DNA from: a virus | Taxonomy: Duplodnaviria; Caudoviricetes | Virus record (IMG/VR): IMGVR_UViG_3300025389_001457 | Location: 1-62,859 of that record | Length of the DNA: 62,859 nt | Strand: one strand, 5' to 3' | Shown here: in pieces, positions 2,602 through 62,108 of the stretch | Position numbering within the stretch: position 1 is the first letter of the stretch | Layout of the letters: each line of letters starts with the position of its first letter | The notes under the pieces: generated by a model | Told to the model about the DNA's origin: nothing | The model's input: the letters and a program-made list of their open reading frames with translations, nothing else | Databases searched by the model: none | Made by a program: the position numbers and the translations under genes

Positions 2602-2626
2602 AAGGGGGCTTTTAGCCCCCTTTTTT
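2602..2626. terminator. bidirectional intrinsic terminator
   Basis: AAGGGGGCT-ttt-AGCCCCCTT plus T tract between convergent genes. Confidence 0.8.
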
Positions 2627-3995
2627 ATTTCACATAAAAACCAGGTAGTCCGCTGTTTGGAGCATCGGCATACGAAGTAAATTCAAAGGTTATTCTACCT
2701 GTAGCAAGTTGTCTATTAGGCCAAACAACACTAAAATTTAAACCTTTTTTACTATCTTTAGCAAAAATTTGAATAAAGTTTTGCTGTAATATTTCACGAG
2801 CTAGTGGTTCCCAATTAGGTAGCGCATTATTAATATTGATAGCTGCCTTTAAATCTTTAAGGCAAAGATAATGCATTATGCCTCCAGGCGTTGCAGTTTG
2901 ACTTTTAATTTTAGATATATCATGTTTGCTTAAAAATGTTCTAAATCTTTTAGGCATATCAACTATATTTTTGCGACTATATTTTTTAGAATCCATCCAT
3001 TCTGTTGTAATTAATACTATTTCTTCTCTGGTAAAAGGAGACATTCTAGCTAATTTACCCATACTTTCTGGAGCAACAGCAAGAATATAATTAAAAAGTA
3101 GGAACGGAACCACAAGACTTGCGGTACCGAGTGACTTCTCTGGATTTTGAATAATTTTTAAAAATTTTACTTCTTTTGCAAACTTTCTACTATTAATTAA
3201 ATTACCAGGTATTTTCAAATTTACAAGAGAAGGTGCATTGCCTTTTGATCCACCTTTGCTACTAATATAAATTTCATTACCTGCCGCGTTTTTAAAATAA
3301 CCAATACTATCACCCAATGGCGCATTTTTTTCTCGTGGAAAATAAAGAGAAATACTATTAAAACTTCTAGTGTCCATATGGTCCAAAAATGCATCGGCTG
3401 TTGGAAAATCTGCAATGCCTTTTACTAATGCAAGAACTCCCAAATATTCGCCAGCATAATCTCTGATTGCTGGTTTATATTCTGGTTTAATCGAAACCCA
3501 GCTTGCAGTAGAACCTTGTCTTATATCCTCTGCCAATTTCATTACATCTCTGCCAATTTCAGTGCTTGCAAGAACTTGGTTATTAATAACTTCATCAAAA
3601 ATAGCGGAGGCACGAAATTTTCGATCACGAAAAATATCGCTTGGTTTAATAACAAAACTTTCTTTTGTTTCTGCGTATATATCACCAATAGCAACTTTTT
3701 CAAAAGCTAAATCTGGTGTTTTAAATAATTGACCTAATGACAATGTTTCACCATTAGTGCCAACAATTTTTATCTGATTTGCTTTAGTTTGTGGATTTGT
3801 AAGTAATTCTTTTAATTCTTCGTACTGACTTTTATCAGCAATAAATTCAGTTTTCTGATCTTTTTTTAAAAAAGGACTTCCTATATGAATTTTTTCTAAA
3901 AACCTATCAACTCTCCACGGATGTTTTTTAATTTCTGGCAAACTTAAATTTGCCTCATCTAGTATATTTTCAATTAAAAATTCATTTGCTCTCAT
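2625..3995 (-). CDS. putative virion-packaged protein with PD-(D/E)xK-like nuclease motif
   Basis: Start MRANEFLIENILDEA (CTS-like) overlaps the stop of the upstream gene; PLGDS...YISSKGG resembles a variant PD-(D/E)xK site. Confidence 0.5.
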   Translation of the reverse strand: MRANEFLIENILDEANLSLPEIKKHPWRVDRFLEKIHIGSPFLKKDQKTEFIADKSQYEELKELLTNPQTKANQIKIVGTNGETLSLGQLFKTPDLAFEKVAIGDIYAETKESFVIKPSDIFRDRKFRASAIFDEVINNQVLASTEIGRDVMKLAEDIRQGSTASWVSIKPEYKPAIRDYAGEYLGVLALVKGIADFPTADAFLDHMDTRSFNSISLYFPREKNAPLGDSIGYFKNAAGNEIYISSKGGSKGNAPSLVNLKIPGNLINSRKFAKEVKFLKIIQNPEKSLGTASLVVPFLLFNYILAVAPESMGKLARMSPFTREEIVLITTEWMDSKKYSRKNIVDMPKRFRTFLSKHDISKIKSQTATPGGIMHYLCLKDLKAAININNALPNWEPLAREILQQNFIQIFAKDSKKGLNFSVVWPNRQLATGRITFEFTSYADAPNSGLPGFYVK

Positions 3996-4717
3996 CTTCT
4001 TTCTTCCCAATTTGGGTCATTGCGTATATCAGCTAATATTCTTTGTGCTTGATCTTGCGGCATAGCGCCAAGAATAGCTTCTACACTGCCTAAATCTTTT
4101 CCGCTTGCATTTTGACCTATTAATGTTTTAGCAACCGTATCAATATCATTACTTATAAATTCACCTTTTTTGCCGCTTTCATCACGCTTAAACAAACCTT
4201 GCCATGGACTCCATAGCATACCACGTTGTTTGGCAAGTAGGGTCATAAGCAATATTTTATTCTTACCTTTGTATGGGCTTCCTTGTGGTATGCTATGCAC
4301 ATGAAATTTAGAAATAGTGCTAGCTTGTGGCGTGACCATAATATCAGTTTGCGCTTTTGCACCATCGGGTAGGGGAATAAGGATATGCACATTAATGCCG
4401 CTTTGTGCAGTTTCAAAACCTAATCCACGCAAATAATCTGCAAGTGCTTTGCGAGCAGTTTTTGCATCATTTTGTTTGAACACTTTTTTTACAGATTCTT
4501 CATCTGCCATTACATCAAAGTCGCCACTCATCTTACCAGCAGTTGGTGTTGCGCCACTGCCGACAGGTATAACAGTAATACCTGTTTTGCCAAGCGCCTT
4601 ATTAACCATATCAACTATATTTTTGGCATATTTTTGATCAAATTGTGTAGCAGCAGCAAACATGTTGCCGCCTTCCAACAATAGTTTTGATTCTACAATA
4701 AACTCACGACTGCGCAT
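3992..4717 (-). CDS. Pol-beta-superfamily nucleotidyltransferase-like protein with CTS-like N-terminus
   Basis: MRSREFIVESKLLLEGGN; GSG...SGDFD and QTD acidic triad. Confidence 0.65.
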   Translation of the reverse strand: MRSREFIVESKLLLEGGNMFAAATQFDQKYAKNIVDMVNKALGKTGITVIPVGSGATPTAGKMSGDFDVMADEESVKKVFKQNDAKTARKALADYLRGLGFETAQSGINVHILIPLPDGAKAQTDIMVTPQASTISKFHVHSIPQGSPYKGKNKILLMTLLAKQRGMLWSPWQGLFKRDESGKKGEFISNDIDTVAKTLIGQNASGKDLGSVEAILGAMPQDQAQRILADIRNDPNWEERR

Positions 4718-17589: not shown

Positions 17590-18048
17590 ATGAAAATGAA
17601 TGAGATAATCCTAGAAGCAGGCGGTCAGCCAATTTACTATTTTGCATACGGTATGCTAACCGATCCTGGTATTATGAGTGATGCTAAGTTTATTGGGCGC
17701 GGGCAGTTACAAAATTATAAGTTTGAATTTTATAAGTTTGCCGATGTTATAGAAACCGCTGGCTCGCATGTTGATGGTGTCCTATGGGAACTTCCAGATG
17801 AAGCCATGCTGCGCTATCTTGACCATATTGAAAGCTATCCAAATATGTATGGTAGGAAGATTGTCCCAATCTTTGTGGGCGGTCAAAAGTATGAAGCATG
17901 GGTTTATTATATGACGCCATCTACTCGTGAATGGGCAGGCAGAGACCGCCGCCCTAGTGATTCCTATGTTACAACCATCGTAAATGGCTATAAACATGCT
18001 GGAATTACCACAAATCAGGTCGGAAAAGCCTATAAAGAAATTGCTTGA
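17590..18048 (+). CDS. gamma-glutamylcyclotransferase (GGCT/AIG2-like) with CTS-like N-terminus
   Basis: MKMNEIILEA, YFAYG, V.GVLW, LD..E.YP..Y, PS..Y. Confidence 0.85.
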   Translation: MKMNEIILEAGGQPIYYFAYGMLTDPGIMSDAKFIGRGQLQNYKFEFYKFADVIETAGSHVDGVLWELPDEAMLRYLDHIESYPNMYGRKIVPIFVGGQKYEAWVYYMTPSTREWAGRDRRPSDSYVTTIVNGYKHAGITTNQVGKAYKEIA

Positions 18049-25629: not shown

Positions 25630-26067
25630 ATGGCTGACAGCATTTTATATTTTTCATATGGGCATAATACTAATATACCCGAATTAAAACACCGTATTCC
25701 AAAAGCAAAACGAATCGGTGTTGCTGTAGCACCAAATCAACAATTAGAAATAAATCATTATACTAATATTGTGGCAAAAGATGGCGCTAAAACCTATGGT
25801 GTGTTATGGGCAGTAGATACTGAATCATTAAAAGTGTTAGATTGGTATGAAGGCGATGGCAAAGATTATGACCACGCTTTTATTGAAGTGTTATACAAAG
25901 GCAAGTTGTATAAAGTTTTAACCTATGTTATGATTAAAAACCGCAGCGATGTAGGCAAACCACCATCACACAAATACCTAAAACATGTGTATGATGGGTA
26001 TAGAATGAATGGCATACCTGCAGACCAACTAAGCATTGCAGTGCGAAATCGTCAAAATAATTATTGA
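25630..26067 (+). CDS. gamma-glutamylcyclotransferase (GGCT/AIG2-like)
   Basis: YFSYG.N, GVLW, LD.YEG, PS..Y. Confidence 0.85.
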   Translation: MADSILYFSYGHNTNIPELKHRIPKAKRIGVAVAPNQQLEINHYTNIVAKDGAKTYGVLWAVDTESLKVLDWYEGDGKDYDHAFIEVLYKGKLYKVLTYVMIKNRSDVGKPPSHKYLKHVYDGYRMNGIPADQLSIAVRNRQNNY

Positions 26068-38639: not shown

Positions 38640-39031
38640 ATACTGATAAAATCGGACCACGTAGCAGTACGCTACATTACAATCAAGATTATCGCAAAAT
38701 TACCCCAACAAAGAATAATGTGTTAGTCAAAGATATGGAATTTGGCGAACGTATGACAGTAGGCGGTATTATCATTCTCGATGATGACAAGAAAGGTCAA
38801 GGTATTCGCCCACGTTGGGCAGAAGTAGTAGCTGTTGGACGCCTACAAGAAGATGTAAAACCAGGTGAATATATTCTTGTTGCTCATGGTCGTTGGACAC
38901 GTGGTCTTGATATGACAGACGAAGATGGCGTAACAACTACTGTTCGTCTTGTTGATCCAAAGGACATTCTTATGAGCAGTGATGAACCGCCAAAGGAAGA
39001 TTTGACCTTTGGTATTAATCCAACTTACTAA
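38636..39031 (+). CDS. groES: co-chaperonin GroES-like
   Basis: T.GGII, VVAVG, VK.G..ILV. Confidence 0.8.
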   Translation: MNTDKIGPRSSTLHYNQDYRKITPTKNNVLVKDMEFGERMTVGGIIILDDDKKGQGIRPRWAEVVAVGRLQEDVKPGEYILVAHGRWTRGLDMTDEDGVTTTVRLVDPKDILMSSDEPPKEDLTFGINPTY

Positions 39032-44722: not shown

Positions 44723-45585
44723 ATCATTATGAAGCATTGGGTGTGGCGCAAAATGCCACACCAGAAGAAGTTAAGAGTGCATTTAGAAAATTAGCAAAAC
44801 AACATCATCCTGACGTAGGCGGTGATCAAGCTAAATTTCAGCAAATTAATGAAGCATATACGACGCTGAGTGATACTAATTCTCGTGCGCACTATGACCA
44901 CACATTACGCAATCCGCAACCACAGTATAATCCTAATACCCAATCTAGTCGCAACCCATTTGAATTTCATTTCAATTTTGGCGGCGGACCTGATCCAATG
45001 GGCGCTTTTCATGATCAATTTTTTCAACAATTTGGATTTGCGACTCGTCAGCAACCAAGAAATCGCAATATAAGAGTTACACTTGAACTTGATTTTTTAG
45101 AAACGTTGAATAAGCAAATCAAGGTTATTGAGTATAGGACTGCTAATCAAACTGATGTGTTACAATTAGAAATACCGCCTGGCATTGAAAGTGGCAATAT
45201 TTTTACTATCGCAAATCGAGGTGATGATGCTAATACTGCTATACCACGCGGTAACTTAGAAGTACAAGTTATTGTTCGTCCGCATAATCGTTTTCAACGA
45301 AATGGTGAAAATATTATAGAGGATATAACGATTGATTGTTTTCAAGCTATTTTAGGCTGCAATATACCGTTAAATTTGCCTAGTGGAAAATCAATAGAAA
45401 TTAATATTCCTCGTGGCACACAACATCAAAGTCAGTTTGGTATAACGGACGAAGGGTTTCCTAGACCAAACGGCACACGTGGCAAATATATAGTAAAAGT
45501 TAATATTCTGATTCCATCTGCATTAACCTCACAGCAGCTTAATTTAGTAGAAGAAATTGTTAAATTAAAACCAGTAAATACTTGA
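44719..45585 (+). CDS. dnaJ: DnaJ/CbpA-like co-chaperone (no Zn finger)
   Basis: HHPD J-domain, G/F-rich region, C-terminal IP.G repeats. Confidence 0.9.
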   Translation: MNHYEALGVAQNATPEEVKSAFRKLAKQHHPDVGGDQAKFQQINEAYTTLSDTNSRAHYDHTLRNPQPQYNPNTQSSRNPFEFHFNFGGGPDPMGAFHDQFFQQFGFATRQQPRNRNIRVTLELDFLETLNKQIKVIEYRTANQTDVLQLEIPPGIESGNIFTIANRGDDANTAIPRGNLEVQVIVRPHNRFQRNGENIIEDITIDCFQAILGCNIPLNLPSGKSIEINIPRGTQHQSQFGITDEGFPRPNGTRGKYIVKVNILIPSALTSQQLNLVEEIVKLKPVNT

Positions 45586-45615: not shown

Positions 45616-47856
45616 ATGGCAAATTCATTTAATAGTAACAGTGACTTAGAAAAAATCGTAAAGTTTGCAAAACAATTTGCAAGCGAAAACAATCATCAAT
45701 ATTTTACCGTAGAGCATTTATTGCTTTCTATGCTACATGAAAAAAGTTTTATTTCTGTGCTAGAAACTATTGGCGTTGATGTTCAACAATTAGTTAAAGA
45801 AGTTGAAGATTATATTTTTGAAAATGTACCAGTTAATACAGCAAACACTGTAGAACCTAAAAAAACACAAATTATTGAACGAGTTTTTAATCGTGCTTTT
45901 ACTCAAGTAATTTTACTTGGTCGCAATACAATTCATATCAGTGATTTATATCTTTCTATTTCTAAAGAAACACATAGTCACGCTGCTTACTTTTTGAACA
46001 AATATGGTGTAGAACCAGAAAAAGTTATTGAAGCATATAACAAAAATAAAAATAAAAAATCAAGTAGTTATGCTACAAATACCTTAGAAGAATACTGCAT
46101 TAATTTAAATGAAAATGCACGTAATGGAAAAATTGAGCAATTAATTGGTCGCGAAAGCGAACTTGCTGATATGACACAAATTCTTGCTCGTAAGAATAAG
46201 TGCAATGTGTTACTTGTCGGTGATGCCGGTGTCGGTAAAACAGCGATTGCAGAAGGTCTTGCTCTTAACATTGTTAATGGCGATGTGCCTAAATTTCTAA
46301 AAAATCATGAAGTTTATAGCTTAAACATTGGTTCGCTATTAGCTGGCACAAAATATCGTGGTGATTTTGAAGAACGCTTACAAGAAATTATGAATGCTGC
46401 TACTGAACTTGGCAACATTATTTTGTTTATTGACGAAGCACATCAGATGCGAGGCGCTGGCAGCGGCAGTAATAGCAGTGTAGATTTTTCCAACATGTTA
46501 AAACCAGCACTTGCTCGTGGTGATTTTAAAGTTATTGCTTCTACTACATGGGAAGAATATACACAACATTTTGAAAAAGACCGTGCGCTTATGCGTCGTT
46601 TTAATCGTGTGAGTGTCGATGAACCTAGTGTTGCCGATACCAAGACTATTCTTCTAGGTATTAAGAGCAGCTATGAAACATTTCATAACGTTAAAATTAC
46701 TGATGCAGCAATTACAGAAGCTGTAGAATTAAGTGCGCGCTATCAAGCAGATAAAAAACTGCCAGATAAAGCTATTGATCTAATAGATAGTGCCGCTGCT
46801 CTTCGCCGCACACAGTCACGTGGCTCTCGTACAATTGACGTTAATCATATTCGTCGTGAATTAAGTCGTATTACTAAAATTCCTGAATCACAATTGGGCG
46901 CAGAAAATACACAAAAGATTATGCCCAACATCGGCGCTGAAATCAAAGCAGTTGTATATAATCAAGATACAGCCGTCGATAAGGTTCTTGATCGTGTATG
47001 GGTATCCCAAGCAGGATTAAAAGCTGATAACAAACCAGTTGGTTCATTCCTGTTCCTTGGACCCACTGGAACAGGTAAAACCGAACTTGCTAAACAATTA
47101 GCTGATCGGTTGAGCATGAAGTTACTGCGCTTTGATATGAGTGAATATCAAGAGCGTCATTCTATCTCACGCCTTATTGGTGCGCCACCAGGCTATGTTG
47201 GTTATGAAGATGCTAACCTTGCTGGTGGTTTGTTGATTAGTGAGATTGCCAAGAATCCACATTGTATTATTCTTTTTGACGAGATTGAAAAAGCACATCC
47301 TGATGTATCACAGGTGTTGCTGCAAGTTATGGACGAAGGTTTCATTACTGGTACCAATGGCAAACGTGCTGATTGCCGCCAATCTATCCTTATCATGACA
47401 AGTAATTTGGGTGCTGCTGATAGCGAACGCAATGTTATTGGATTTGGCGGTGGAACAAATGTGGATGCAGTTGATGCTGCTGTTAAAGAATTCTTCCGTC
47501 CAGAGTTCCGCAATCGTGTAGATGCGATTGTTACATTCAACAAACTTGATAACGTTACAATTCGCAAGGTTGCAGAAAAGTTTATTCGTGATCTAAATGA
47601 ACAATTATTATTAAAGAATACATCCGTATCACTCACTGATGCTGCATGGGATTGGCTGTGTAAAAAAGGCTATACTCCAAGTCTTGGCGCACGACCAATG
47701 CATCGTACAATTCATGAACATATCAAAGTTCCGTTAGCAAAGAAAATACTGTTTGACAAGACAGCAAATCATGCTATTATTAAGGTAGACTTAATTGATG
47801 ATAAGTTAGAATTGGTAGCGCAAGATGACAGAGATAACGGAACTAACCTTAATTGA
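45616..47856 (+). CDS. clpA: ATP-dependent Clp protease ATP-binding subunit ClpA
   Basis: Two AAA modules (GDAGVGKT, GPTGTGKT), KYRGDFEER, PPGYVG, IGF loop. Confidence 0.93.
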   Translation: MANSFNSNSDLEKIVKFAKQFASENNHQYFTVEHLLLSMLHEKSFISVLETIGVDVQQLVKEVEDYIFENVPVNTANTVEPKKTQIIERVFNRAFTQVILLGRNTIHISDLYLSISKETHSHAAYFLNKYGVEPEKVIEAYNKNKNKKSSSYATNTLEEYCINLNENARNGKIEQLIGRESELADMTQILARKNKCNVLLVGDAGVGKTAIAEGLALNIVNGDVPKFLKNHEVYSLNIGSLLAGTKYRGDFEERLQEIMNAATELGNIILFIDEAHQMRGAGSGSNSSVDFSNMLKPALARGDFKVIASTTWEEYTQHFEKDRALMRRFNRVSVDEPSVADTKTILLGIKSSYETFHNVKITDAAITEAVELSARYQADKKLPDKAIDLIDSAAALRRTQSRGSRTIDVNHIRRELSRITKIPESQLGAENTQKIMPNIGAEIKAVVYNQDTAVDKVLDRVWVSQAGLKADNKPVGSFLFLGPTGTGKTELAKQLADRLSMKLLRFDMSEYQERHSISRLIGAPPGYVGYEDANLAGGLLISEIAKNPHCIILFDEIEKAHPDVSQVLLQVMDEGFITGTNGKRADCRQSILIMTSNLGAADSERNVIGFGGGTNVDAVDAAVKEFFRPEFRNRVDAIVTFNKLDNVTIRKVAEKFIRDLNEQLLLKNTSVSLTDAAWDWLCKKGYTPSLGARPMHRTIHEHIKVPLAKKILFDKTANHAIIKVDLIDDKLELVAQDDRDNGTNLN

Positions 47857-50797: not shown

Positions 50798-51925
50798 ATG
50801 TTCATTAATCAGATTATCAGCGAAGCGCCTAAAGTTGGTCGTGCTTTTCAGCACGTAGAAGACCTTGTTCTCATTGAAGGTAGCATGGGCGCTGAAAAAG
50901 CTATTAATCGACTCGCCCAAATTGCAAGCAATCCACAAACCGTGCGTTGGAAATGGGATGGCAAACCTCAAGTCTATTGGGGACGTGAGCCAGATGGTAA
51001 ATTTATTATGGTTGGTCACAATGGTTGGCTAAAACCAGATGGCAGCGGTAAAAGCCAAAGCCCACAAGAATTAGTACGTTTTATCATGAGCACTGGTAAA
51101 GTAGAAGCGGGCAAAGAAGACGAACGCATGCGGTTTGCCAACGAATACGCAAGTTTATGGTCATTGTTTGAAGCTGCAACTCCACAAGATTTTCGTGGCT
51201 ATGTATATGGTGATTTGTTGTTTATGCGCAGACCACCACTAGAAAATAATGCATATACTTTTACACCAAATAATGTAACATATAGCATACCTGCTTCAAC
51301 AGAACTTGGGCAACGAATATCAAAAGCAACTGCAGCAGTCGTAGGACATGCATACTTTCCACAATTTGGCATGGGCGATGACCAACAACAACCTATTGAT
51401 GATTTTACACCATTTAATAAGTCACAAGGCTTGATTGTATTGGGTCCGCGATATGCACAGCAGCCTGTTAAGATTGACACTAAGAAATTGCAAGATTTAC
51501 AAAAATATGTTGCAGCAAATAAAAGCGCAATAGATAATTTCTTGAACGATGAGCGCCTCGCTGCTATGAAAATGGCAAGCTTTAAGGGTGTGCTTTATAA
51601 TTTTAATAATCAAATGGCAAGAGTTGGCAGAACAAGTGATCTTGCAAGCGAATTTACAAATTGGATAAGCAGCGGTAGCAAACAAAATGCAACAATGCAG
51701 CAGAAGATAAAGGATTGGATTGCGCAAAACCAAAAAGGGTTTATTGCTACATTTGCAGTTCTTGAGAACCTACGCAATATTAAAAATGCAATCATTGATC
51801 AATTAGATAGTGAAGGCGGCGATATACAACAAACTACCAAGGGACAAAAGGGCGGAGAAGGTTATGTCAATTATGGCGAACCTAACATTAAACTTGTGCC
51901 TCGTCATCGCTGGACACCAAATTAA
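50798..51925 (+). CDS. ligase-like nucleotidyltransferase with CTS-like N-terminus
   Basis: MFINQIISEA; HVEDL; KWDG (motif I-like), GDLLF, EGYV...K (motif IV/V-like). Confidence 0.6.
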   Translation: MFINQIISEAPKVGRAFQHVEDLVLIEGSMGAEKAINRLAQIASNPQTVRWKWDGKPQVYWGREPDGKFIMVGHNGWLKPDGSGKSQSPQELVRFIMSTGKVEAGKEDERMRFANEYASLWSLFEAATPQDFRGYVYGDLLFMRRPPLENNAYTFTPNNVTYSIPASTELGQRISKATAAVVGHAYFPQFGMGDDQQQPIDDFTPFNKSQGLIVLGPRYAQQPVKIDTKKLQDLQKYVAANKSAIDNFLNDERLAAMKMASFKGVLYNFNNQMARVGRTSDLASEFTNWISSGSKQNATMQQKIKDWIAQNQKGFIATFAVLENLRNIKNAIIDQLDSEGGDIQQTTKGQKGGEGYVNYGEPNIKLVPRHRWTPN

Positions 51926-51939
51926 TACCTATTGACATA

Positions 51940-51960
51940 CCAGATAAATATTTTATCTGG
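51940..51960 (+). promoter_or_regulatory. hairpin containing late promoter TAAATA
   Basis: CCAGATAAA-tat-TTTATCTGG, 8 nt before the ATG. Confidence 0.6.
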
Positions 51961-51968
51961 ATTGTATA

Positions 51969-54900
51969 ATGACCCTAAGCCACCGCACTATCTTTAATGA
52001 AGCACCAAATCCTCATGTTGCATTTGCATTTGGGCGCATGAATCCGCCGCATTTTGGTCACGAAGGGCTTATTAAAACCCTACAAAGTGTAGCAAAAAAA
52101 GGCAGTTGGGCGTTATTTCTAAGTAAAAGCCAAGATGCCAAAAAGAATCCACTTAACTATGAACAAAAAGTTAAATGGGTTAAAGCACTTTATCCACAAA
52201 CACAAGGACATCTCGTTGAAGAACCATCAATCAAAACATTCCTACAAGCAGCCGCATATCTTTATGACAAAGGTTTCCGCAGTGCCACTTTTGTGGCTGG
52301 CGAAGACGACATGGCAAGTATGCGACCAGTATTGGAACAATACAACGGCAAGCAAGTAACACATGGTTTCTATCATTTTGAGCCGCTTTCTTTTATGGAA
52401 AGCCCACGATTAACCTCCGCGACAAATGCACGTGAAGCAGCCAAAAGCGGCGATCCAGAAGCATTTGAACGTGCTACACGTGTGCCACCAAATATCACAG
52501 TAGATGGCAAGACACTTATGCAAGCAGTTCGCATTGGTATGGGACTTGGTGAAAGTGTTGAAGAAAGTATCATCACTGAAAGTTTATCAGTAGAACAACT
52601 TGCTCACATAAGTGATAAAGCACTTGATGACGCTTATCATTATGGGTTATCTACACCTAACAATAACTTTGGTTGGTTGGCAAATATTGAAAGTGCCACT
52701 GCTGCAAAGCGTATGATTGATAGTGGCATTACAGATGTAGAAGCCATTGCCAACGCTATCCACGATGGTTGGAATAAAACTGCTATGGCTGATTATATGG
52801 GCAAGTTGCAGCTAGATACGCCAACCATTCCCGATAAGAAAAAGAAGCGTTATGCTCTTGCCCAACAAACTTATGCACAGTTGCCAGAAGTAGAAAAAGA
52901 AAAAGACCGTGTAGTTGCTCGTGCTATGTTGAAGGCAATGGGTATCGTTACCGAAGCACCAGGCATTGGTGGCGATTGGGGTGATAATCCTAAACTAGTC
53001 AAACGTGGTCGCAAACCATATGAACCCAATAAGGATGATACCTATTACGGCTCTGCCCACGGCACAGACCTTGATTTATATGGTTTGCCAAAATATGAAT
53101 TAGATGAAGACCTAACTCCTGACCAATGGGCAGAGTTGCGCATTACTGATCCAAAAGCCTATATGGGTAATAAGGATTATACTAATCGTCGTTGGTGGAC
53201 TCTGCAGTTTAAGAAGGCTCGTGCTGCTGCCCGTGATCAAGGTGCTAATCGTTTTGAGTTTCCGCCAGGTTCTAAGAACAGTTATATGGTTGCTCCTGAC
53301 TTGGCAAATGAAAATTTAGATGAAGCCGCAGAAAAATCAACCAAAGCCGAAGCCAAGTATCAGGCAATGCCTCGCAATGGTCAGCGTTGTGATTACTGCA
53401 CTATGTGGCGTCCTCCGCATGGTTGTTCGGCTGTTAGTGGCAAGATTGCGGCAAATGGTTGGTGTTCATATTACAAGCGTAGTCATCGTAAAGATTTAGA
53501 TGAAACTATTGAACCAAATAGCAATATGTTAGCAATAGCACAACGTCTCGAAGATTATGCTAATGAACATATTCCACACGAAGACGATGGTTTTGGTGAT
53601 TTTATGTATCACGCAGAACTTATTCGCAAAGGTCATCTTGACATACATCGTGAAGATATGGTGAAGGTTCAACCACGCTATCTTCCGATTATGAAATCTA
53701 TCACAAAGAATGAATTAGTATCAGAATCACAACTTGACGAAGCAGCATCACCAGTGTTGTTCCATTATACAGGCAGTGTGGGTGCAGCATTAAACATTCT
53801 TAAAAACAATGAGTTTATGTTGAGCATTTCTACTGGTAGTGTAGAAGACCAATATGCACCACGTGGTTATAACTATTTCTTATCCACAACACGCAGCAAA
53901 GTAGGTGGATATCACGAGTTTACTGGCGGCACTGCTGTTATGTTCAACCTTGATGGCAATTGGTTCAATCGTCGCTATCCAGTTAAAGCAATTGACTATT
54001 GGGCAGGATTTGATAAGCAAAAGCACAGCGAAAGCGAAGACCGTGTATTCTCACGTGAGCCAACTATACCAGCAGATGCGATTACAGCAGTTCATATCTT
54101 ACTTAAAGAAGCAGGTGAGTTTGCAAGTCCAACTACTCGCCAGTTGATGATTGTAGCAAAGAAGCGTGGATTACCAACCTATCTTTACAGTGATGAAAAT
54201 GCGTGGAAATTACAGGACACCAAGCGAGCAATACCAGTAAGCAAAGCCCAAGATTTAATTCGTGGTCAAAAGAAGACTGGTTATATAAGCACCTTTAATG
54301 GTAAGAAATATCTTGCTCCTTGGTTAGAACTTATCTTTAAGAAGAAACGCAGTGAGTTATCCAAAGAAGCAAATAAACTGCGTTATAGTTTAACCTATTG
54401 GAGCGGTGGTCAGTTTGCTGATGACCTTGGGTTACGTAATGAAATTACCAATGCTCGCAAACCAGGCAACAGTGGCTATGAAGCAGCAACTAAAATTATT
54501 GCAGCAATGCGCAAAATCGGTGCCAATGATGTAAAAGGTTTGCTGACATTCTTGCACAAGAAGTGGGATGCAGAAGCACAACAGCCACTTAAAAGCGACA
54601 ATGATGCACAACGAGCAATTGCTAATATTCGTGCCGATAGTGCTAAAAAAGAAAGTGTTGAAGAAGCACTTGATCCAAATGAAACACACGGTTGGATTTT
54701 GCCTAATCGCAAAGTTGAATATGTTACGAAGGAAGAACATCTGGGATGGCTTTATAGTAAAGACATTGATGGATATGAAGAAGCATTTAAACTTGGATAT
54801 GTGCGTTTTGCAAAAGCAACCGTTTCGTTTTTTGTTCAAGGTTTCTTGCCTGACCTTAAAAAGATGTATCGTGTATATGCACAAACTGCACTTGGATTTA

Positions 54901-55169
54901 AGCATATTGCAGTTGATATAATAGTTGATGAGCGAGGCAGAATTGATAACCAAATTTCATTAGACTACGAAATGCCAAAAGACAAAGCAAAGTTTATAAA
55001 GAAATTTGGACCGCAACAAAATGAACACGCTGGTTCTATCATAGGAACTGTTGGTGGCGGCAATGATTATCCTGACCGTCAAGTAGCTACATTTCCGTGG
55101 GACCGTGAGGTTGAACCAGATGAAAATGGCGCAAAAGTACAGTATCTGAATAAACAACGCAAACTTTAA
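51969..55169 (+). CDS. multidomain polyprotein: HIGH-type nucleotidyltransferase, RyR-like, HiPIP-like, ART-like and other modules
   Basis: FGRMNPPHFGH; IHDGW..Y.QLPE.EKEKDR; YQ.....QRC..C......C..V.G.I...GWC; FHYT..STT..ESE; modules joined by [ILV]xE linkers. Confidence 0.75.
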   Translation: MTLSHRTIFNEAPNPHVAFAFGRMNPPHFGHEGLIKTLQSVAKKGSWALFLSKSQDAKKNPLNYEQKVKWVKALYPQTQGHLVEEPSIKTFLQAAAYLYDKGFRSATFVAGEDDMASMRPVLEQYNGKQVTHGFYHFEPLSFMESPRLTSATNAREAAKSGDPEAFERATRVPPNITVDGKTLMQAVRIGMGLGESVEESIITESLSVEQLAHISDKALDDAYHYGLSTPNNNFGWLANIESATAAKRMIDSGITDVEAIANAIHDGWNKTAMADYMGKLQLDTPTIPDKKKKRYALAQQTYAQLPEVEKEKDRVVARAMLKAMGIVTEAPGIGGDWGDNPKLVKRGRKPYEPNKDDTYYGSAHGTDLDLYGLPKYELDEDLTPDQWAELRITDPKAYMGNKDYTNRRWWTLQFKKARAAARDQGANRFEFPPGSKNSYMVAPDLANENLDEAAEKSTKAEAKYQAMPRNGQRCDYCTMWRPPHGCSAVSGKIAANGWCSYYKRSHRKDLDETIEPNSNMLAIAQRLEDYANEHIPHEDDGFGDFMYHAELIRKGHLDIHREDMVKVQPRYLPIMKSITKNELVSESQLDEAASPVLFHYTGSVGAALNILKNNEFMLSISTGSVEDQYAPRGYNYFLSTTRSKVGGYHEFTGGTAVMFNLDGNWFNRRYPVKAIDYWAGFDKQKHSESEDRVFSREPTIPADAITAVHILLKEAGEFASPTTRQLMIVAKKRGLPTYLYSDENAWKLQDTKRAIPVSKAQDLIRGQKKTGYISTFNGKKYLAPWLELIFKKKRSELSKEANKLRYSLTYWSGGQFADDLGLRNEITNARKPGNSGYEAATKIIAAMRKIGANDVKGLLTFLHKKWDAEAQQPLKSDNDAQRAIANIRADSAKKESVEEALDPNETHGWILPNRKVEYVTKEEHLGWLYSKDIDGYEEAFKLGYVRFAKATVSFFVQGFLPDLKKMYRVYAQTALGFKHIAVDIIVDERGRIDNQISLDYEMPKDKAKFIKKFGPQQNEHAGSIIGTVGGGNDYPDRQVATFPWDREVEPDENGAKVQYLNKQRKL

Positions 55170-55186
55170 AAACGGTAAATATATAA

Positions 55187-58100
55187 ATGAGCGACAAAGA
55201 CCTGATACTTGAAGAAATCCTAAATGAAGTGAATATGAGTCCGTCAGCCCTTCGTGCGGCAGTGGCAAAGATTCCCAATGCCAAGGCAGGTCTTGAATTT
55301 GAACTTATCGTCACTAATCTTGAAGAAGAGGAAGATGATGATTATGATCCATATGAGGACTTTGAATCCGAACCAGACTATGACCAAGATGAGCGTATCT
55401 CTACCGCAAGTTTCAACGCACTAGCACAAGATGTTATGCAGTTCTTTAATGGTGATCACAATAGTCGCCGTGATGTAAACCGTGCGATTGATTTGATGCG
55501 TGAAGCGTGGAGTGATTATATTGAAGGTCCGCTATGGGATAATTATACTAGCGCCCGTATTCAAGATTTTATTGACCAACGCTATGGTCGTGATTATGCT
55601 AATCAAGCAGAGTTATTTAAAGAAATTGATACGATTGATCCATATGAAGAGTTTAAATCACGATATTTCCAAACTTGGGTAGATAATCTTGAAGATGATG
55701 ATAACATAGATGATTATCTTGAACAATTTTTAGAAGACAACTATGGTGGTCAATATATGAGTAATTTGGCAAGTGATAGCAGTCTTGGGCTATCTTGGCC
55801 AGTTTGGACTGAACCTGATTATTATGACCGCAGAACTCGCTCTACTGTTGATGTAGGTGATTTCCGCCGTGCTGTTGGTATGAAGACTATCAAGAGCGGC
55901 TCTTATCACGGTATTACAAAGCCAAATGATGCTTATGTTATTGAACCAGATAGCAGCTTACAACCCACTCGTGGTAAAGGTGGCGAAGGTTTAGAGTTTG
56001 TATCACCACCGCTAGATATTCCAACAATGATTGACCAAATCAATAAGGTCAAGGCGTGGGCAAAAGATGGCAATGCTTATACCAATGATAAAACTGGTCT
56101 GCATATGAACATCTCTATACTAGGTTATAAGTTAGATAAACTTGATTATGTTAAACTTGCGTTATTTTTAGGCGACAAGTATATTCTTGAAAAGTTTGGT
56201 CGTCTTGGCAACTCTTATGCTCGCAGTGCATTTGAACAGATTGCTTCATTCATTAAACAAAATCCAGAAAAGGCTAATAAAGCCGTTGATGCGATGCGTC
56301 AGAATTTAAACCTAGTAGCATCCAAACTTATTCATAGCGGTTATACTAACAAGTTTACAAGTATCAATACAAAAGATAATCGTGTAGAGTTCCGTTCTCC
56401 AGGCGGCAACTGGCTTGATATGGATACTGATGAAGTAGTGAATACGCTGCTTCGTGTTGTATATGCAATGAACATTGCTCTTGACCCAGAAGCAGAACGC
56501 AAAGAGTATCAAAAGAAATTTTCAAAGCTACTTACTGCTGATAAGAAAGATGAAACTGATACTATCAAGTATTTCACACAATTTGCAACAGGTAATATGC
56601 CTCGTTCTGCACTTATAAGTTTTGTTAAAACAGCGCAAAGCAAGCGTGATTTTGCAAAGAAAGCAAAAGCAGAAAAACCAAATGATCCGTATGCTAAACA
56701 ACAGGGCGATGATACACCGTATGTTGATTATACAGGTATGGCTGGCATTACATTCCAAATTATTAGTCGTGTAACTGGCGAAGAATTAGAATCATTCGTA
56801 GTATCACCAAGACTAACTTATAGTGATGTATATGATATTGCCACACGTAAAGTGCGAGCAAGTGGTCGTTCATTTGACCTAGTAGCGTTAAAAGATACTC
56901 GTGACGGTGAAGTAAGTGATATTCTAACACGTGAGCCAATACACAACACTGTATCCCCATCAACACCATCCATACAACCAATGTATGTTATCCGCAGAGC
57001 AAACACACAACAGGCTGTATCACAGTTTCGTGCGCCAGATAATGAGCAAGCACGTGATATTGCTACACGTATGGCACGTGAATATGGTTATCGTGATAGT
57101 GATTGGTTTTTATCCCTTGCAAGTGATGATACAAATAGACCAATACCTGGTGCGGGTACACAAGCATTACAATTGCCCAGTGGTGGTGCAGCAACCTATG
57201 TTGTTGTAAACCGTAGCGATGGCACAGAATTATTAACAACACAAGCACAAAGTTTTTACGCAGCAACGCAAGCAGCCCAAAGATTTGCGCAAGAACGTAG
57301 TCTACCATTAGCAAGTATTGCTATAAGATCACCAAACAACAATAATCTATGGGATACGCAAGGTCAACTAATTCCTCAACCAAGCCCACAACCAGAACAA
57401 CCTCGCCAATATACACAAGCAGAAATTGATCGTGGTTATGATATTACGGGCAATGCTATTCCAGCAAACGCAACAGCAACATCTTCTAACATTACTGCAA
57501 CCGAAGGTGTAAAATACCAAATCATTGCCAGAGGTGGCGTAGTCCACGAGTTCCGTGCAGCATCACCTCGTGGTGCTGAACGCTATGCTGAATCTTGGTC
57601 AAATGAACATCTTGGTGATGAGAGTTATGAAGTTCAACTTGCTCCACGCAGCGAAAGTATTGAAGAAAGTATCCTAAATGAAATCAATATGAGTCCTACA
57701 TCTCTTGAAAAATTTGCCGATACACCATTTGCCAAGAGTATGAAAGTTGGTTTTGAAACTGAAATGTATATTCCTGGTCTTGGCGGCGAAGAAGGCGAAG
57801 AGGAAGAAGAAGAGGATATGGATGCCAACGAAGAGTTTCCAAGCAGTGCATCCTATCGTGATCGTCAGCGTGATGTTATGAACTTCTTTAGTGGCAATTA
57901 CAATACTCGCCGTGATGTCGAAAGTGCGTTAGATGCGTTATATGAAGCATTTAGTGAATATCAGTATGAAACCTATGATAATGAATTTGAAGGCACTGAT
58001 GATTACAATGACGCAGTTCAAGAAGAATTAGGCGATACGCCTATGGGCGAAGCAAGTGAGCGAGAACTTGATGATGCCAAAGATAATGTTCGCACCGCTT

Positions 58101-60013
58101 GGATAGAAAACAACGAAGAATATACTTGGGGTAGATTCATAAGTCGCAATGGCATTGATGATATGTATGACTTTATGCGTTGGGTAAATCGCAATACTCG
58201 TGAATCGCTATCTTGGCCATATTATACATTTAGCAGCAGTAGAGAAGAACCAACAACAGATATTGGCGATGTTGTTGATGATTTTAGACGCAATACTGGT
58301 TATAAGGCACGAGCAAGCAGTGGTTATCATGGAGCAGATCGTGATGAAACCACTTGGATATTTGAACCAGATAGTTCGCTAGATAGCCCAAGCAACGATG
58401 GCGACGGTGGCATTGAACTTGTATCACCACCTATGAACCTAGAAGATGGTTTGGCTGCGTTAGAGAATGTATTCAGTTGGGCAAAGAGCAATGATTATTA
58501 TACTAACCGCACAACTGGTTTCCATATTGGCGTGTCTATTCCACTACAAACAATGGAAAACATTGACCATCTTAAAGTAATCATGTTGCTTGGCGATGAA
58601 TATGTATTAAAAGCATTTGGTCGTGCTGGCTCACGTTGGACCAAGAGTAGTTTTGACCAAGCCAAACGTGAAGTGCGTGGCAGAGCAGCCCGAAAGAATG
58701 TGCCAGCAATCCTTGACAAGATGCGTGGTGGATTGCAAGATATTGCTAAACAAGAAATCAACAAACTGTTGGTTCCTCGTGGCGACCGCTATGTTAGCGT
58801 AAACATCAAGCCAAATTATATTGAGTTCCGCAGTGCTGGTGGCAATTACTTTGAGCAATATGAAGAAATCCGCAAGACCATGTTGCGTTATGTTCGTGTT
58901 ATGGCAGCAGCGGCTGATCCAGAAGATGCAAGCAGAGAATATCAAAAGAAACTGTATAAGTTTGTAAGTGCTGGTATAGGTGAAAAAGACAATACTATGC
59001 AGCTATTCGCCAAGTATACTGCTGGCGCTATTGACAAAGAACAACTTGTTAAAGAATTACGCACTGCCCAAGAGCGTCGTAAGCCTGTTGCACCACTTGG
59101 GTCTGGTCCAGTTGATGGTTTCCTAGAAGATGAAAACGGTGATCAAGTTGTAAAGATCAAGGGAACAAACCCATATGAAATGATTGAACTTGGTGTGAAG
59201 TTTGCTAACACTCGTCAGATACCATTGGGTGATACAAACCTACGTTATCCTGGTTACAGTATGGTTCGTGTGCAATATTATTCTACACACCAAACTGAAA
59301 AGGATAGTGTAACACTGGTTTATATACCTGCTGTTGATTTATACAATACGTATAGTAGTGAAATAACAAAAACCGCTGTTCCTGTTGCAGAAAAACATTG
59401 GGGTTTAAGTAAATTACCAATAGAACGTTTTGCTGTGAGAGTGCTAGACGAGTATTCGCTACAATATATGCGTGATGAAATGATGCGCATTACGTCTCGT
59501 GGTGAAGATCGTGCGCCAACACCACCACAAGCACAAGCACAGGCACAAGCCGCACCAGATAGCGATGATGAGGGCAGACAAGTTAGATATATCTTGAAAT
59601 ATACATCTAACGGCAACGAACTTACTAACTTTTCTACAAGTAGTCCAAGTCAAGCAAAAATATATAGTAATAATTTGGTAAGAAATAACAGTCAACTTCG
59701 CTGGGGCGGAACATTTGGCGGTGTTCGTGGTGTTGTATTGTTTAGAGTTGATCCAGATACCCAAGAACAAGAATTGTTCTACATGGGTCCAGGCGAGGCT
59801 ATTGTAAATCAACCTGCTGCTGAACCTGCGCCAGCATCTAGACCTAACGTTGCAAATCCAGGTGGTCGTGGAACTTATGCTTTATTTGTTCAAAATGGGA
59901 CGCAGATATCCGAAGAATTAGAATTTAATTCGTATCAAGATGCGCTGCGCCATTTCACACCGCTGGCGAATAGTTCAGGTTTCACAGGTTGGAGCGTAAA
60001 GCAACTATCATAA
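55187..60013 (+). CDS. tandem double amidoligase (COOH-NH2 ligase-like) with small repeated domains
   Basis: Twice: G.E.E, EPDSSL, G.E.VSPP, TG.H, EFRS.GG; ILNE[VI]NMSP opens each half. Confidence 0.8.
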   Translation: MSDKDLILEEILNEVNMSPSALRAAVAKIPNAKAGLEFELIVTNLEEEEDDDYDPYEDFESEPDYDQDERISTASFNALAQDVMQFFNGDHNSRRDVNRAIDLMREAWSDYIEGPLWDNYTSARIQDFIDQRYGRDYANQAELFKEIDTIDPYEEFKSRYFQTWVDNLEDDDNIDDYLEQFLEDNYGGQYMSNLASDSSLGLSWPVWTEPDYYDRRTRSTVDVGDFRRAVGMKTIKSGSYHGITKPNDAYVIEPDSSLQPTRGKGGEGLEFVSPPLDIPTMIDQINKVKAWAKDGNAYTNDKTGLHMNISILGYKLDKLDYVKLALFLGDKYILEKFGRLGNSYARSAFEQIASFIKQNPEKANKAVDAMRQNLNLVASKLIHSGYTNKFTSINTKDNRVEFRSPGGNWLDMDTDEVVNTLLRVVYAMNIALDPEAERKEYQKKFSKLLTADKKDETDTIKYFTQFATGNMPRSALISFVKTAQSKRDFAKKAKAEKPNDPYAKQQGDDTPYVDYTGMAGITFQIISRVTGEELESFVVSPRLTYSDVYDIATRKVRASGRSFDLVALKDTRDGEVSDILTREPIHNTVSPSTPSIQPMYVIRRANTQQAVSQFRAPDNEQARDIATRMAREYGYRDSDWFLSLASDDTNRPIPGAGTQALQLPSGGAATYVVVNRSDGTELLTTQAQSFYAATQAAQRFAQERSLPLASIAIRSPNNNNLWDTQGQLIPQPSPQPEQPRQYTQAEIDRGYDITGNAIPANATATSSNITATEGVKYQIIARGGVVHEFRAASPRGAERYAESWSNEHLGDESYEVQLAPRSESIEESILNEINMSPTSLEKFADTPFAKSMKVGFETEMYIPGLGGEEGEEEEEEDMDANEEFPSSASYRDRQRDVMNFFSGNYNTRRDVESALDALYEAFSEYQYETYDNEFEGTDDYNDAVQEELGDTPMGEASERELDDAKDNVRTAWIENNEEYTWGRFISRNGIDDMYDFMRWVNRNTRESLSWPYYTFSSSREEPTTDIGDVVDDFRRNTGYKARASSGYHGADRDETTWIFEPDSSLDSPSNDGDGGIELVSPPMNLEDGLAALENVFSWAKSNDYYTNRTTGFHIGVSIPLQTMENIDHLKVIMLLGDEYVLKAFGRAGSRWTKSSFDQAKREVRGRAARKNVPAILDKMRGGLQDIAKQEINKLLVPRGDRYVSVNIKPNYIEFRSAGGNYFEQYEEIRKTMLRYVRVMAAAADPEDASREYQKKLYKFVSAGIGEKDNTMQLFAKYTAGAIDKEQLVKELRTAQERRKPVAPLGSGPVDGFLEDENGDQVVKIKGTNPYEMIELGVKFANTRQIPLGDTNLRYPGYSMVRVQYYSTHQTEKDSVTLVYIPAVDLYNTYSSEITKTAVPVAEKHWGLSKLPIERFAVRVLDEYSLQYMRDEMMRITSRGEDRAPTPPQAQAQAQAAPDSDDEGRQVRYILKYTSNGNELTNFSTSSPSQAKIYSNNLVRNNSQLRWGGTFGGVRGVVLFRVDPDTQEQELFYMGPGEAIVNQPAAEPAPASRPNVANPGGRGTYALFVQNGTQISEELEFNSYQDALRHFTPLANSSGFTGWSVKQLS

Positions 60014-60055: not shown

Positions 60056-60622
60056 ATGAAAATTAATATTATGTTACAAGCAACGTATTGCAATAATCGT
60101 TGGCCACAATTAAAAATATACAATAATGGAATTGTGTTAGATGATTATCTTTGCAATCAAACCCATATAATTTTAGAATATGATGTTGTAACAAAACAAG
60201 ATAATCAATTAAAATTAGAATTTTATAATAAATGCTTTGGTGATGGTGGCATATGGGATGTTAGTAATAGCGGCGAGATGAAATTAAAGTTAGTTGATTT
60301 GGCATTTGATGATGTTTCAATTGATCATTTAATTCATACATTAGAATATGAAACCAATTGGACACCAAACCAATTAATATATGAACCACAAGAAAGTATT
60401 AAAAATTATAGTAAGTATTGTAGCAATGGAATAATGTCATTTAATGGGTGTTTCATTTTTGAATACTCTATGCCAATTTATAATTTTTTGATTAATAAAA
60501 AATATAAAAAGCAATACAATTCTAATTTAGCGTATTTTAGTAATTATACAGAATCTTTTCACTATGAAACAGGCATAGATAAAATTGCAGAGATTAGAAA
60601 GATAATTAAAACGCATGACTAA
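60056..60622 (+). CDS. hypothetical protein (paralog of 50311)
   Basis: WP.L.I..N, NK, FNG.....Y..P.Y; coupled to a radical SAM gene. Confidence 0.65.
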   Translation: MKINIMLQATYCNNRWPQLKIYNNGIVLDDYLCNQTHIILEYDVVTKQDNQLKLEFYNKCFGDGGIWDVSNSGEMKLKLVDLAFDDVSIDHLIHTLEYETNWTPNQLIYEPQESIKNYSKYCSNGIMSFNGCFIFEYSMPIYNFLINKKYKKQYNSNLAYFSNYTESFHYETGIDKIAEIRKIIKTHD

Positions 60623-62108
60623 TATTTTAGTTTTATCAATTCCAAGAATAGAACCACATAGACCGCCGTTGGGTGTATCTATCTTAGGAACTGTATGTGA
60701 AAATGCTGGTCATAATGTTACAGTAGCAGATTTAAATATAAAATTTTTCAATCATTGTAAAACACACGGAGTTGATTACTTTAATTTTGATGACATATGG
60801 GATTCATATCGTGAAGAAACGCTTGCAGAATCAAAATTTATTGACCAATTTATTGTACAATTTATAAATGATTATAATCTTAATTCTTATGATTATATTA
60901 TGCTTAGTATTTTTGGCATCAGTAATCATATTTTTGCTGAAAAATTATTAGAAAAAATAGCACCAAATCGTAATTATAAAATATTAGTGGGTGGAAGCGG
61001 TGCTTTTATTTCTCTAAAAAATTCAAATAGTATAGTTGTTGATAATTTTAAAAGCAGAAATTTAATAGATGATTATATTCGTGGCGAATGCGAAGAGTCA
61101 GTGCTGCAATATTTGCAGCATGGCAATGGCAGTGGAATTAATAACAGCAATTTCAAACAAATTTCTAATCTTGACTCTTTGCCTATACTCAGTTACAAAT
61201 TTTTAAATCTTGATGAATATGATTATTTGAATAATAAAAAGAGTGTTTATATAGAAGGCAGTCGTGGTTGTGTCCGTAGCTGTACATACTGTGATGTTGT
61301 AGCTTATTGGCCAAAATATAGATTTCGTAGCGGAAAGCATATTGCAAGCGAAATTATAAAACATTACGAAACACATGGCGTAACTGATTTTTATTTTACT
61401 GATAGTTTAGTAAATGGCAGTCTAAAAGCATTTTCAGAAATGTGTAATGTGCTTGCCAATCATAATTTTACTGATAAAATTAGTTGGAGCGGACAATTTA
61501 TTTTTAGAGATCGACGTAGTGTGCAGCCTGAACACTTTGAAATGATTGCCAAAGCTGGTGGTGATACTTTTTTTGTTGGAATTGAAACAGGCAGTGATCG
61601 CGTTCGCAAGGCAATGGGTAAAAATTTTTCTAATGATGATATTGAATATCAATTAGAACAATTTCATAAAAATAAACTTAAAACAACTTTCTTAATGTTT
61701 CCTGGTTATGTTACAGAAACCATTGAGGATCATAATGATACACTTAATATGTTACAAAGATGGCAAAAGTATGTTGCTAACGGTGTCATCAATGGTTTAG
61801 AACTTGGTTCGCCACTTGTTTTCCTAGAAAATAGTCCGCTTGCTCACATGATAGATGAATATAAAATTAAATTTTTAGAACTTGATAATATTTCAAACAA
61901 AAGATTTTGGATAAGAGAAGATGATCCAGAATATAATTTTATTACTCGTGTCGAGCGACAACTTGAGTTATATGAAGAAGCTGTAAAATATAACTGGCCG
62001 ATTTGGAGATTTACAAGTAGAGCAGAATCTCTACTAAATTCTGTAAAAACATATTATAAAAACATCGAAAATAACGCAGAATATAAAAAATTACCTGTGA
62101 TAAATTAA
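60615..62108 (+). CDS. B12-binding-type radical SAM protein
   Basis: PPLG, GG, GE.E, SRGCVRSCTYC, FTDSLVNG, GIETGS, GY.TET.ED. Confidence 0.88.
   Translation: MTNILVLSIPRIEPHRPPLGVSILGTVCENAGHNVTVADLNIKFFNHCKTHGVDYFNFDDIWDSYREETLAESKFIDQFIVQFINDYNLNSYDYIMLSIFGISNHIFAEKLLEKIAPNRNYKILVGGSGAFISLKNSNSIVVDNFKSRNLIDDYIRGECEESVLQYLQHGNGSGINNSNFKQISNLDSLPILSYKFLNLDEYDYLNNKKSVYIEGSRGCVRSCTYCDVVAYWPKYRFRSGKHIASEIIKHYETHGVTDFYFTDSLVNGSLKAFSEMCNVLANHNFTDKISWSGQFIFRDRRSVQPEHFEMIAKAGGDTFFVGIETGSDRVRKAMGKNFSNDDIEYQLEQFHKNKLKTTFLMFPGYVTETIEDHNDTLNMLQRWQKYVANGVINGLELGSPLVFLENSPLAHMIDEYKIKFLELDNISNKRFWIREDDPEYNFITRVERQLELYEEAVKYNWPIWRFTSRAESLLNSVKTYYKNIENNAEYKKLPVIN

Follow-up and report, generated by a model that had tools for sequence, protein, structure and literature searches.

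The question raised by this locus is why a phage should encode two putative amidoligases head-to-tail within a single open reading frame (ORF), and whether the short motif with which both of them begin is a signal for cutting them apart. The ORF, whose product is referred to as P0001, lies in a 62,859-nucleotide (nt) stretch of viral DNA (IMG/VR record IMGVR_UViG_3300025389_001457), here called the window, which belongs to a T4-like jumbo phage and encodes a gp44-type clamp loader, RNA ligase 1, PhoH and five tRNAs. The reading that is favoured, with a probability of roughly one half, is that the ORF encodes an injected and processed pair of amide ligases within a modular effector array; it is preferred to an unprocessed cytoplasmic enzyme, which is considered somewhat unlikely.

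In each half of the ORF a module of about 485 amino acids (aa) precedes a tail of about 300 aa (Table 1). As an earlier note on this DNA had pointed out, the sequence EEILNEVNMSP at aa 9 (nt 55211) recurs as EESILNEINMSP at aa 826 (nt 57662), and a BLASTP comparison of aa 1-820 with aa 821-1608 pairs aa 7-487 with aa 825-1298 at 33% identity (164 of 502 positions, E 2e-70). The five motifs named in that note are kept in both halves, namely G-E-E (G35-E37-E39 in A, G855-E857-E859 in B), EPDSSL (253-258 and 1060-1065), E-VSPP (270-275 and 1077-1082), TG-H (303-306 and 1110-1113) and EFRS-GG (401-407 and 1213-1219), and so are the acidic inserts, which follow the first strand at aa ~45-69 in A and aa ~866-884 in B. 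The whole protein matches the Pfam family PF12224 (Amidoligase_2) at 43.3 bits over two stretches, and each half on its own exceeds the gathering cutoff of 22 bits, with 23.4 bits for A and 25.8 bits for B; no NCBIfam family matched either half. In an alignment of 148 distinct module instances from 121 proteins, 81 columns are conserved in at least 90% of the sequences, of which A keeps 80 and B 79. With a Pfam match and the conserved residues in each half, the ORF thus contains two complete, divergent ligase modules, and from their residues both copies look active.

Table 1. Features of the window discussed in the text (a slash marks a candidate cleavage site)
Feature	Position	Strand	Description
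ORF with leader MRANEFLIENILDE/A	2625..3995	-	no family match; no similarity to the amidoligase module
ORF with leader MRSREFIVE/S	3992..4717	-	no family match; adjoins ORF 2625..3995
AIG2-like gamma-glutamyl cyclotransferase	17590..18048	+	PF06094, E 1e-15, domain from aa 17; leader MKMNEIILE/A
Second AIG2-like cyclotransferase	25630..26067	+	without leader (MADSILYFSYG...)
Multi-cassette ORF (P0002)	51969..55169	+	1066 aa; nucleotidyltransferase, weak RyR-like stretch, HiPIP/Iro-like unit, others
Two-amidoligase ORF (P0001)	55187..60013	+	1608 aa; leader, amidoligase A, repeat tail A, junction, amidoligase B, tail B
Leader MSDKDLILEEILNE	55187..55228	+	14 residues; ends L12-N13-E14, candidate P3-P1 of a gp21-type site
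Amidoligase module A	55229..56668	+	aa 15-494; glutamine synthetase-like fold; helical and acidic insert at aa ~45-230
Tail A	56669..57643	+	four beta-beta-alpha-beta units, each ~50 aa
Internal junction PRSESIEESILNE	57644..57682	+	ES[ILV]EE/S (aa 823-828) plus L830-N831-E832/I833
Amidoligase module B	57683..59131	+	aa 833-1315; acidic insert at aa ~866-884
Tail B	59132..60010	+	aa 1316-1608; one recognisable repeat unit, aa 1466-1507

The glutamine synthetase (GS)-like carboxylate-amine ligase fold that had been proposed is supported for half A by an AlphaFold 2 model of aa 1-820 (22-row alignment, mean predicted local distance difference test score (pLDDT) of 69.8) and by the structural matches of this model. 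In a VIA search of 48,161 PDB representatives the top ten matches of module A all belong to the GS family (Z 7.6-9.2, 169-191 residues aligned), with Dop (Z 6.7) and PafA (Z 6.0) ranking next, and the best Foldseek rows for half A are also GS, with a weak E of 0.025. Half B is assigned the same fold by way of its 33% identity to the modelled half A. In the model the leader forms a helix of low confidence (aa 3-12; pLDDT 36 over aa 1-10) and L12-N13-E14 lies in coil, after which come a confident helix at aa 19-27, a strand at aa 33-42 bearing G35-E37-E39, the long helical and acidic insert and then the remaining strands. Because the structural matches to GS begin at model residue 16-19, with aa 16-27 aligning with GS structures, the NMSP helix falls within the fold and the leader outside it. 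The phage module is reminiscent of GS, PafA and Dop in its fold and in the location of its acidic, His and Arg motifs on strands, but it lacks the N-terminal domain of GS, has an identity of ~11-17% over the aligned residues and carries a large family-specific insert. Membership of Amidoligase_2 and the GS/PafA-like fold together point to ATP-dependent joining of an amine to a carboxylate as the predicted chemistry of both modules.

The earlier note had singled out the internal copy of the N-terminal motif as a special feature of this protein, which it is not. Every one of the 148 aligned modules, whether N-terminal or internal, opens with L-x-E-[IVL]-x-M-[SG]-[PT]-x-x-L, in which the Glu is present in 148/148 and the Met and the Leu in 147/148 each, and the internal copy is therefore the ordinary start of module B. 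The ORF has two instances of the pattern L.E[IV].M where 0.02 are expected, a count reached in 0 of 5000 shuffles. The family is large, with at least 1098 and at least 1267 matches in two length classes, and among 1.84 billion representatives of 50% clusters it numbers 2024 at E <= 1e-3, 1491 at <= 1e-10 and 819 at <= 1e-30. A single module is present in 91 of the 121 proteins first examined, two modules in 27 and three in two, while one protein shows a split match only. The metagenomic protein P0248 (2938 aa) contains four stretches that match the module, so arrays beyond three modules may exist. The opening pattern is absent in seven of 243 proteins; four or five of the seven begin at the Met of the motif itself and, since at least two of these nearly fill their short contigs, look truncated.

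The segment that precedes the fold has features of its own. Across 281 sites the residue at P3 is Leu or Ile in 269, P2 is free and the Glu at P1 is invariant, and in 139 of 152 N-terminal module instances this Glu is found at position 13-17. The opening M-[KR]-x-aromatic/hydrophobic-x-[EDQ]-Phi (Phi, a hydrophobic residue) fits 61 of 79 distinct leaders (e.g. MRYQEF...LFE/) and only one of the 67 ATG-initiated ORFs of the window. In T4 the proteins IPI-III and Alt carry a capsid-targeting sequence (CTS), are processed by gp21 and are injected with the DNA. T4 IPII and IPIII begin with MKTYQEFIAE/A. Gp21 cuts after Glu, and Alt is trimmed at ITE-6 and LTE-619 (PMC5694885). Processing of IPIII depends on positions 8 and 10 of its 10-residue CTS and targeting on positions 4 and 7, and an Asp at position 10 prevents cleavage (PMC9026906). 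The [LI]-x-E pattern with its invariant Glu fits a specificity of the T4 gp21 type.

A protease of this type is present in the relatives of the phage. Peptidase_S77, the family of gp21-type prohead proteases, is found in three of four related records with scores of 90-92 bits against a cutoff of 27, where it adjoins a gp23-type capsid protein which has YLAE/S in its N-terminal region. One of the protease-bearing records is a complete genome of 338 kb, which has terminal repeats and carries an ortholog. Given the T4-type protease of the relatives, the [LI]-x-E specificity and the CTS-like leaders, the cleavage at LNE/I that the earlier note envisaged is plausible rather than demonstrated. The cut itself could fall at ES[ILV]EE/S, five residues before LNE/I, which has a small P1' residue and is more T4-like.

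Leaders of the same type are carried by eight of the 67 window ORFs against 2.1 expected (P 1.3e-3). The leader MRANEFLIENILDE/A of ORF 2625..3995 nearly equals the amidoligase leader MRAREFVIENELLDE/V of P0174, and this ORF and its neighbour at 3992..4717 are, judged by their N-termini, candidate head cargo. In the leader-bearing AIG2-like ORF the nine residues of the leader stand ahead of the domain, and this protein and its leaderless paralog could be a pair with one packaged and one cytoplasmic member. A DUF6267 protein (50798-51925, +, E 6e-29) has the leader MFINQIISE/A; a single PHROG 455 profile extends across this ORF into the beginning of the next, which suggests that fused forms exist elsewhere.

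The two-amidoligase ORF is part of an array that includes the multi-cassette ORF directly upstream. The upstream ORF has an 11-residue leader ending in IFNE/A and junctions of the form Phi-[DE]-E/[AST]. Its [ILV][DE]E[AST] sites number five where 0.32 are expected and its [ILVF].E[ASG] sites 11 where 3.25 are expected, and neither count was reached in any of 5000 shuffles. The window ORFs (20,026 aa) contain the motif ES[ILV]EE three times; two of the copies are in the upstream ORF and the third is at the A/B junction, and ES[ILV]EE[SA] directly before module B is kept in 25 of 26 orthologs. More generally, an additional site of the form [ILVF].E[ASG] lies within the 30 aa before 54 of 99 distinct internal junctions, where 5.3 would be expected. 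Within P0001 such sites are scarce, with two against 5.8 expected, one of which is at the junction (fewer in 84 of 5000 shuffles).

Cassettes are gained, lost, fused and split at these junctions. The upstream and amidoligase ORFs are separate in L001-L003, as in the window, and are joined in one frame in L007 (at least 2286 aa) and L011 (2851 aa), so that the N-terminal leader of the amidoligase ORF is internal there (...ITEELLNE/VNMSP). In L004, L008 and L010 the C-terminal domain of the upstream ORF runs into ...LDE/VNMSP and a third amidoligase; this third module is of the B type (aa 1536-2034 of the frame in L010) and brings the number of modules at the locus to three. A 76-aa cassette that lies between DLDE/T and QLDE/A is missing in L007 and L008, which leaves DLEE/TELDE/A. 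The homologs pair the module with GH19, M48, ADP-ribosyltransferase, deaminase, Pol-beta nucleotidyltransferase and NT5C domains, and because of this mixture the effector-cassette style fits that of injected polyvalent proteins. The earlier description of the ORF as a polyprotein gains strength from the fusions with the upstream ORF, the gain and loss of cassettes at Phi-x-E junctions, the gp21-type protease of relatives and the CTS-like leaders, but stays unproven.

Two further observations concern the upstream ORF. A Cys-rich HiPIP/Iro-like unit of about 50 aa (53331-53471, +; aa 455-501) reaches E 2e-8 in NCBIfam, which is below the cutoff of that family, and 21.9 bits against a cutoff of 22 for Pfam HIPIP; it is flanked by NLDE/A and DLDE/T (sites 450 and 510), and in a phage polyprotein such a cassette is unusual. 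The ATG of the ORF is preceded, at a distance of 8 nt, by a perfect inverted repeat of 9 bp around a 3-nt loop (51940-51960, CCAGATAAA TAT TTTATCTGG), which includes GATAAATA, a sequence with a single mismatch to the T4 late-promoter consensus.

Several observations weigh against an injected and processed pair. The protease of the window phage is inferred from relatives at 47-59% identity, and packaging, cleavage, chemistry and target are likewise what we infer. The P1' residue of the invariant site is Ile, Val or Leu in 281 of 281 cases and Ala in T4 IPII and IPIII; small P1' residues are found at the neighbouring ES[ILV]EE/S and at the leaders of the upstream ORF and of other window ORFs. 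M17 and L22, which follow the Glu, are equally invariant and part of the fold, and the motif could therefore be conserved for structure. The leader of P0001 itself (MSDKDL...) lacks the CTS-like opening. The T4 late-promoter consensus TATAAATA is not enriched in the window, with two matches against 9.2 expected, which leaves late expression unsupported. The AIG2-like genes are 29-37 kb from the amidoligase ORF and thus not adjacent to it. The counts of junctions and sites in homologs cover related sequences and do not represent independent events. Finally, the homolog in phage RsoM2USA, ORF26, is not among the 10 identified bands. RsoM2USA and Atu_ph07 are the only cultured phages with protein-level matches, none having DNA nearly identical to the window, and both of their homologs are stand-alone; that of Atu_ph07 (AUZ94978.1) sits two genes from the portal, and a large cluster of virion proteins at coding sequences 170-215 is described for this phage (PMC6102473).

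The rival that survives best is an uncleaved, two-headed cytoplasmic enzyme, neither packaged nor processed, in which L-x-E-[IV]-x-M-S-P is just a structural cap or hinge and which would act, for example, in envelope, peptidoglycan or metabolite modification, as has been proposed for the LUZ24-type amidoligase cluster. GS-like enzymes often work as oligomers, and tandem modules could therefore make a pseudo-dimer. The invariance of M17 and L22 on a par with E14, the alignment of aa 16-27 with GS structures and the bulky P1' residue at the invariant site all suit such an enzyme, as do the two AIG2-like genes within the window and the early-gene clusters in which phage Amidoligase_2 is documented together with AIG2, ATP-grasp and GATase genes (PMC3890496, PMC11945000). 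However, the window yielded no ATP-grasp, GATase or PF14395 partner at E <= 1e-4, and a cytoplasmic enzyme leaves unexplained why a leader of 13-17 residues stands upstream of the fold in 139 of the 152 N-terminal instances, why it recurs on unrelated ORFs and on just one of the two AIG2-like paralogs, and why Phi-x-E/small sites are enriched about 10-fold in the linkers before internal modules. This rival is accordingly rated below the injected and processed pair, as the lesser but still substantial part of the probability.

It is improbable that the array is processed by another protease, be it an M48-like zincin, a host protease or autoproteolysis, and not necessarily in the prohead. Zincin (MPTase) domains have been proposed to process polyvalent proteins (Iyer et al. 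2017, PMC5512222), and Peptidase_M48 lies directly upstream of the module in several homologs, but no peptidase domain was detected in either P0001 or P0002, the [LI]-x-E pattern with its strictly invariant Glu fits gp21-type specificity and a gp21-type protease is present in the relatives.

Equally slight is the chance that one module is a catalytically dead, regulatory or scaffolding copy. The modules are just 33% identical and depart from the consensus at three of the conserved columns, with L312 for Pro in A and N881 for Asp and I985 for Leu in B, but none of these positions lies within the five motif blocks, each half exceeds the Pfam cutoff alone and both subfamilies are conserved across many lineages; the alignment thus gives no sign of the lack of catalytic residues in one half that the earlier note named as a reason to abandon its proposal. 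An assembly chimera, another such reason, or an artefactual duplication was rejected as of negligible probability, with nothing found in its favour, halves that are only 33% identical, a two-module layout that recurs in 26 protein clusters (P0001, which is this protein, P0003-P0025 and P0027) and relatives encoded on 13 independent viral contigs.

The two modules also differ in ancestry. In a FastTree phylogeny of 51 representatives module A groups with a large clade of single-module proteins (support 0.97-1.0), and module B groups with multi-module proteins and the third module of L010 (support 0.885). A recent tandem duplication was rejected because A and B fall into separate deep clades, which makes this an old pairing of two subfamilies. 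Different targets for the two ligases, as the earlier note suggested, would fit the deep split and the differing tails.

The four beta-beta-alpha-beta units of tail A are located at aa 521-570, 598-648, 669-719 and 772-824, and a single unit, modelled from an alignment of 22 repeat instances, folds at a pLDDT of 91.4. A Pfam search with the repeats gave only noise at E <= 10, a PDB profile search gave nothing below E 0.027, Foldseek gave nothing at E <= 0.001 and the ESM Atlas gave no usable match for the tail. In VIA the best match of the unit is PaaB (Z 6.0), followed by generic small alpha+beta proteins at Z 4.1-4.6 that include anti-CRISPRs and T7 Gp2. An identification of the repeats as YegP, GB1 or another named domain was rejected for want of a convincing relative in sequence or structure. 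That they bind the target is a guess.

With regard to the reaction, the Pfam entry links Amidoligase_2 with an AIG2-type cyclotransferase or a GAT-like peptidase. In phages Amidoligase_2 clusters with AIG2/GGCT, ATP-grasp, GATase and COOH-NH2 ligase genes in what has been called a putative peptidoglycan modification module (PMC3890496, PMC11945000), and in Clostridium prophages it adjoins a gamma-glutamyl cyclotransferase (PMC11318856). Elsewhere in the window, at 2235-2597 (+), 1139-2173 (+), 5374-6588 (-) and 60615-62108 (+), are genes for an S-adenosylmethionine (SAM) decarboxylase of polyamine synthesis, two radical-SAM enzymes and a C-methyltransferase; one of the two radical-SAM enzymes has a weak B12-binding domain and is encoded directly 3' of the amidoligase ORF. 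These enzymes might supply amine substrates or belong to a pathway that modifies DNA or sugars. GroES-like, DnaJ and ClpB-type chaperones (38636-39031, 44719-45585 and 45616-47856, all +) are encoded a short way before the polyprotein genes.

On the favoured reading of an injected and processed pair, the ORF would form part of an array of effector cassettes and supply two ATP-dependent carboxylate-amine ligases from the old subfamilies A and B, each trailed by small beta-beta-alpha-beta domains that probably bind its target. Each unit would open with a portable segment, be it a leader or a junction, that terminates in [LI]-x-E, and the internal junction has ES[ILV]EE/S in addition. The precursor would enter the prohead, where a gp21-type Glu-specific protease would cut the junctions to release two enzymes of roughly 90 kDa each, and the freed enzymes would travel with the DNA into the next host. 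There they may couple an amine or an amino acid to a target in the host or its envelope, the bond being most likely an amide of the gamma-glutamyl type, with the leader-bearing AIG2-like cyclotransferase as a possible co-delivered partner.

Parts of this scheme have precedents. The leaders resemble those of T4 IPI-III and Alt in being short, in opening with M-[KR]-x-aromatic-x-E-Phi and in ending with [LI]-x-E, and as in T4 the lineage has a Glu-specific T4-type prohead protease and enzymes as cargo (Alt is an ADP-ribosyltransferase). Unlike those of T4 they have 13-17 rather than 10 residues and Ile, Val or Leu instead of Ala at P1', and the motif is also internal, between the cassettes of very large ORFs, and known from sequence alone. 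The Amidoligase_2 proteins (PF12224/phrog_2443) of LUZ24-like phages and prophages share the family and the presence of AIG2-like genes in the same genome segment. The module described here differs from them in its length of ~485 aa with the large helical and acidic insert, the leader and the beta-beta-alpha-beta tails, and in being duplicated and embedded in polyprotein-like ORFs, and the window differs in the absence of ATP-grasp, GATase and PF14395 genes at the threshold given above and in the distance of its AIG2-like genes.

Polyvalent proteins are likewise very large and string together unrelated effector domains, and their delivery with the DNA and processing into units have been proposed (Iyer et al. 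2017, PMC5512222). P0001 alone carries just amidoligase and repeat domains; unrelated effector domains in one polypeptide are provided by the array (P0002 and P0001, fused in L007 and L011) and by the homologs. That paper does not name amidoligases (0 occurrences) and proposes autoprocessing by zincins (PMC5512222), whereas P0001 and P0002 have no detectable zincin or other peptidase, M48 occurs in some homologs and the junctions resemble prohead-protease sites. The ejection proteins of phiKZ, 201phi2-1 and SPN3US, jumbo phages with many packaged proteins, are described as being cut after Glu at short motifs with redundant propeptide sites, but their proteases prefer S/A/G-x-E where the T4-like lineage here has [LI]-x-E. 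Amidoligase_2, the T4 CTS and gp21, and polyvalent proteins are therefore all known parts. In the literature searched, no paper ties amidoligases to virions, to a CTS or to a prohead protease, and a leader-bearing amidoligase cassette that is repeated in polyprotein-like ORFs with Glu junctions appears to be an undescribed combination.

A wider and more speculative proposal would be that in T4-like jumbo phages the leaders and junctions amount to a general "cut-here" grammar, made up of an N-terminal CTS-like leader and of [LI]-x-E or Phi-[DE]-E/small between arbitrary effector cassettes, by which the prohead protease dices capsid-delivered polyproteins into individual enzymes for injection. 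The amidoligase units would be the commonest cassette and would serve as injected writers of gamma-glutamyl-type amide tags on a host target in the first moments of infection, with a co-injected AIG2-type eraser. Taken jointly, these elements are unlikely to hold.

Should the junctions prove to be true prohead-protease sites, the family, with its roughly 2,000 uncharacterised protein clusters, would become a set of candidate injected enzymes, and the junction motif could help to recognise, from sequence alone, the head cargo of uncultured jumbo phages and the boundaries of their mature proteins. GS-like amide ligases would then be a new enzyme class among the phage effectors that are delivered with the DNA, and the capsid-targeting principle of T4, which is already used in engineered protein delivery, would extend to natural multi-cassette precursors.

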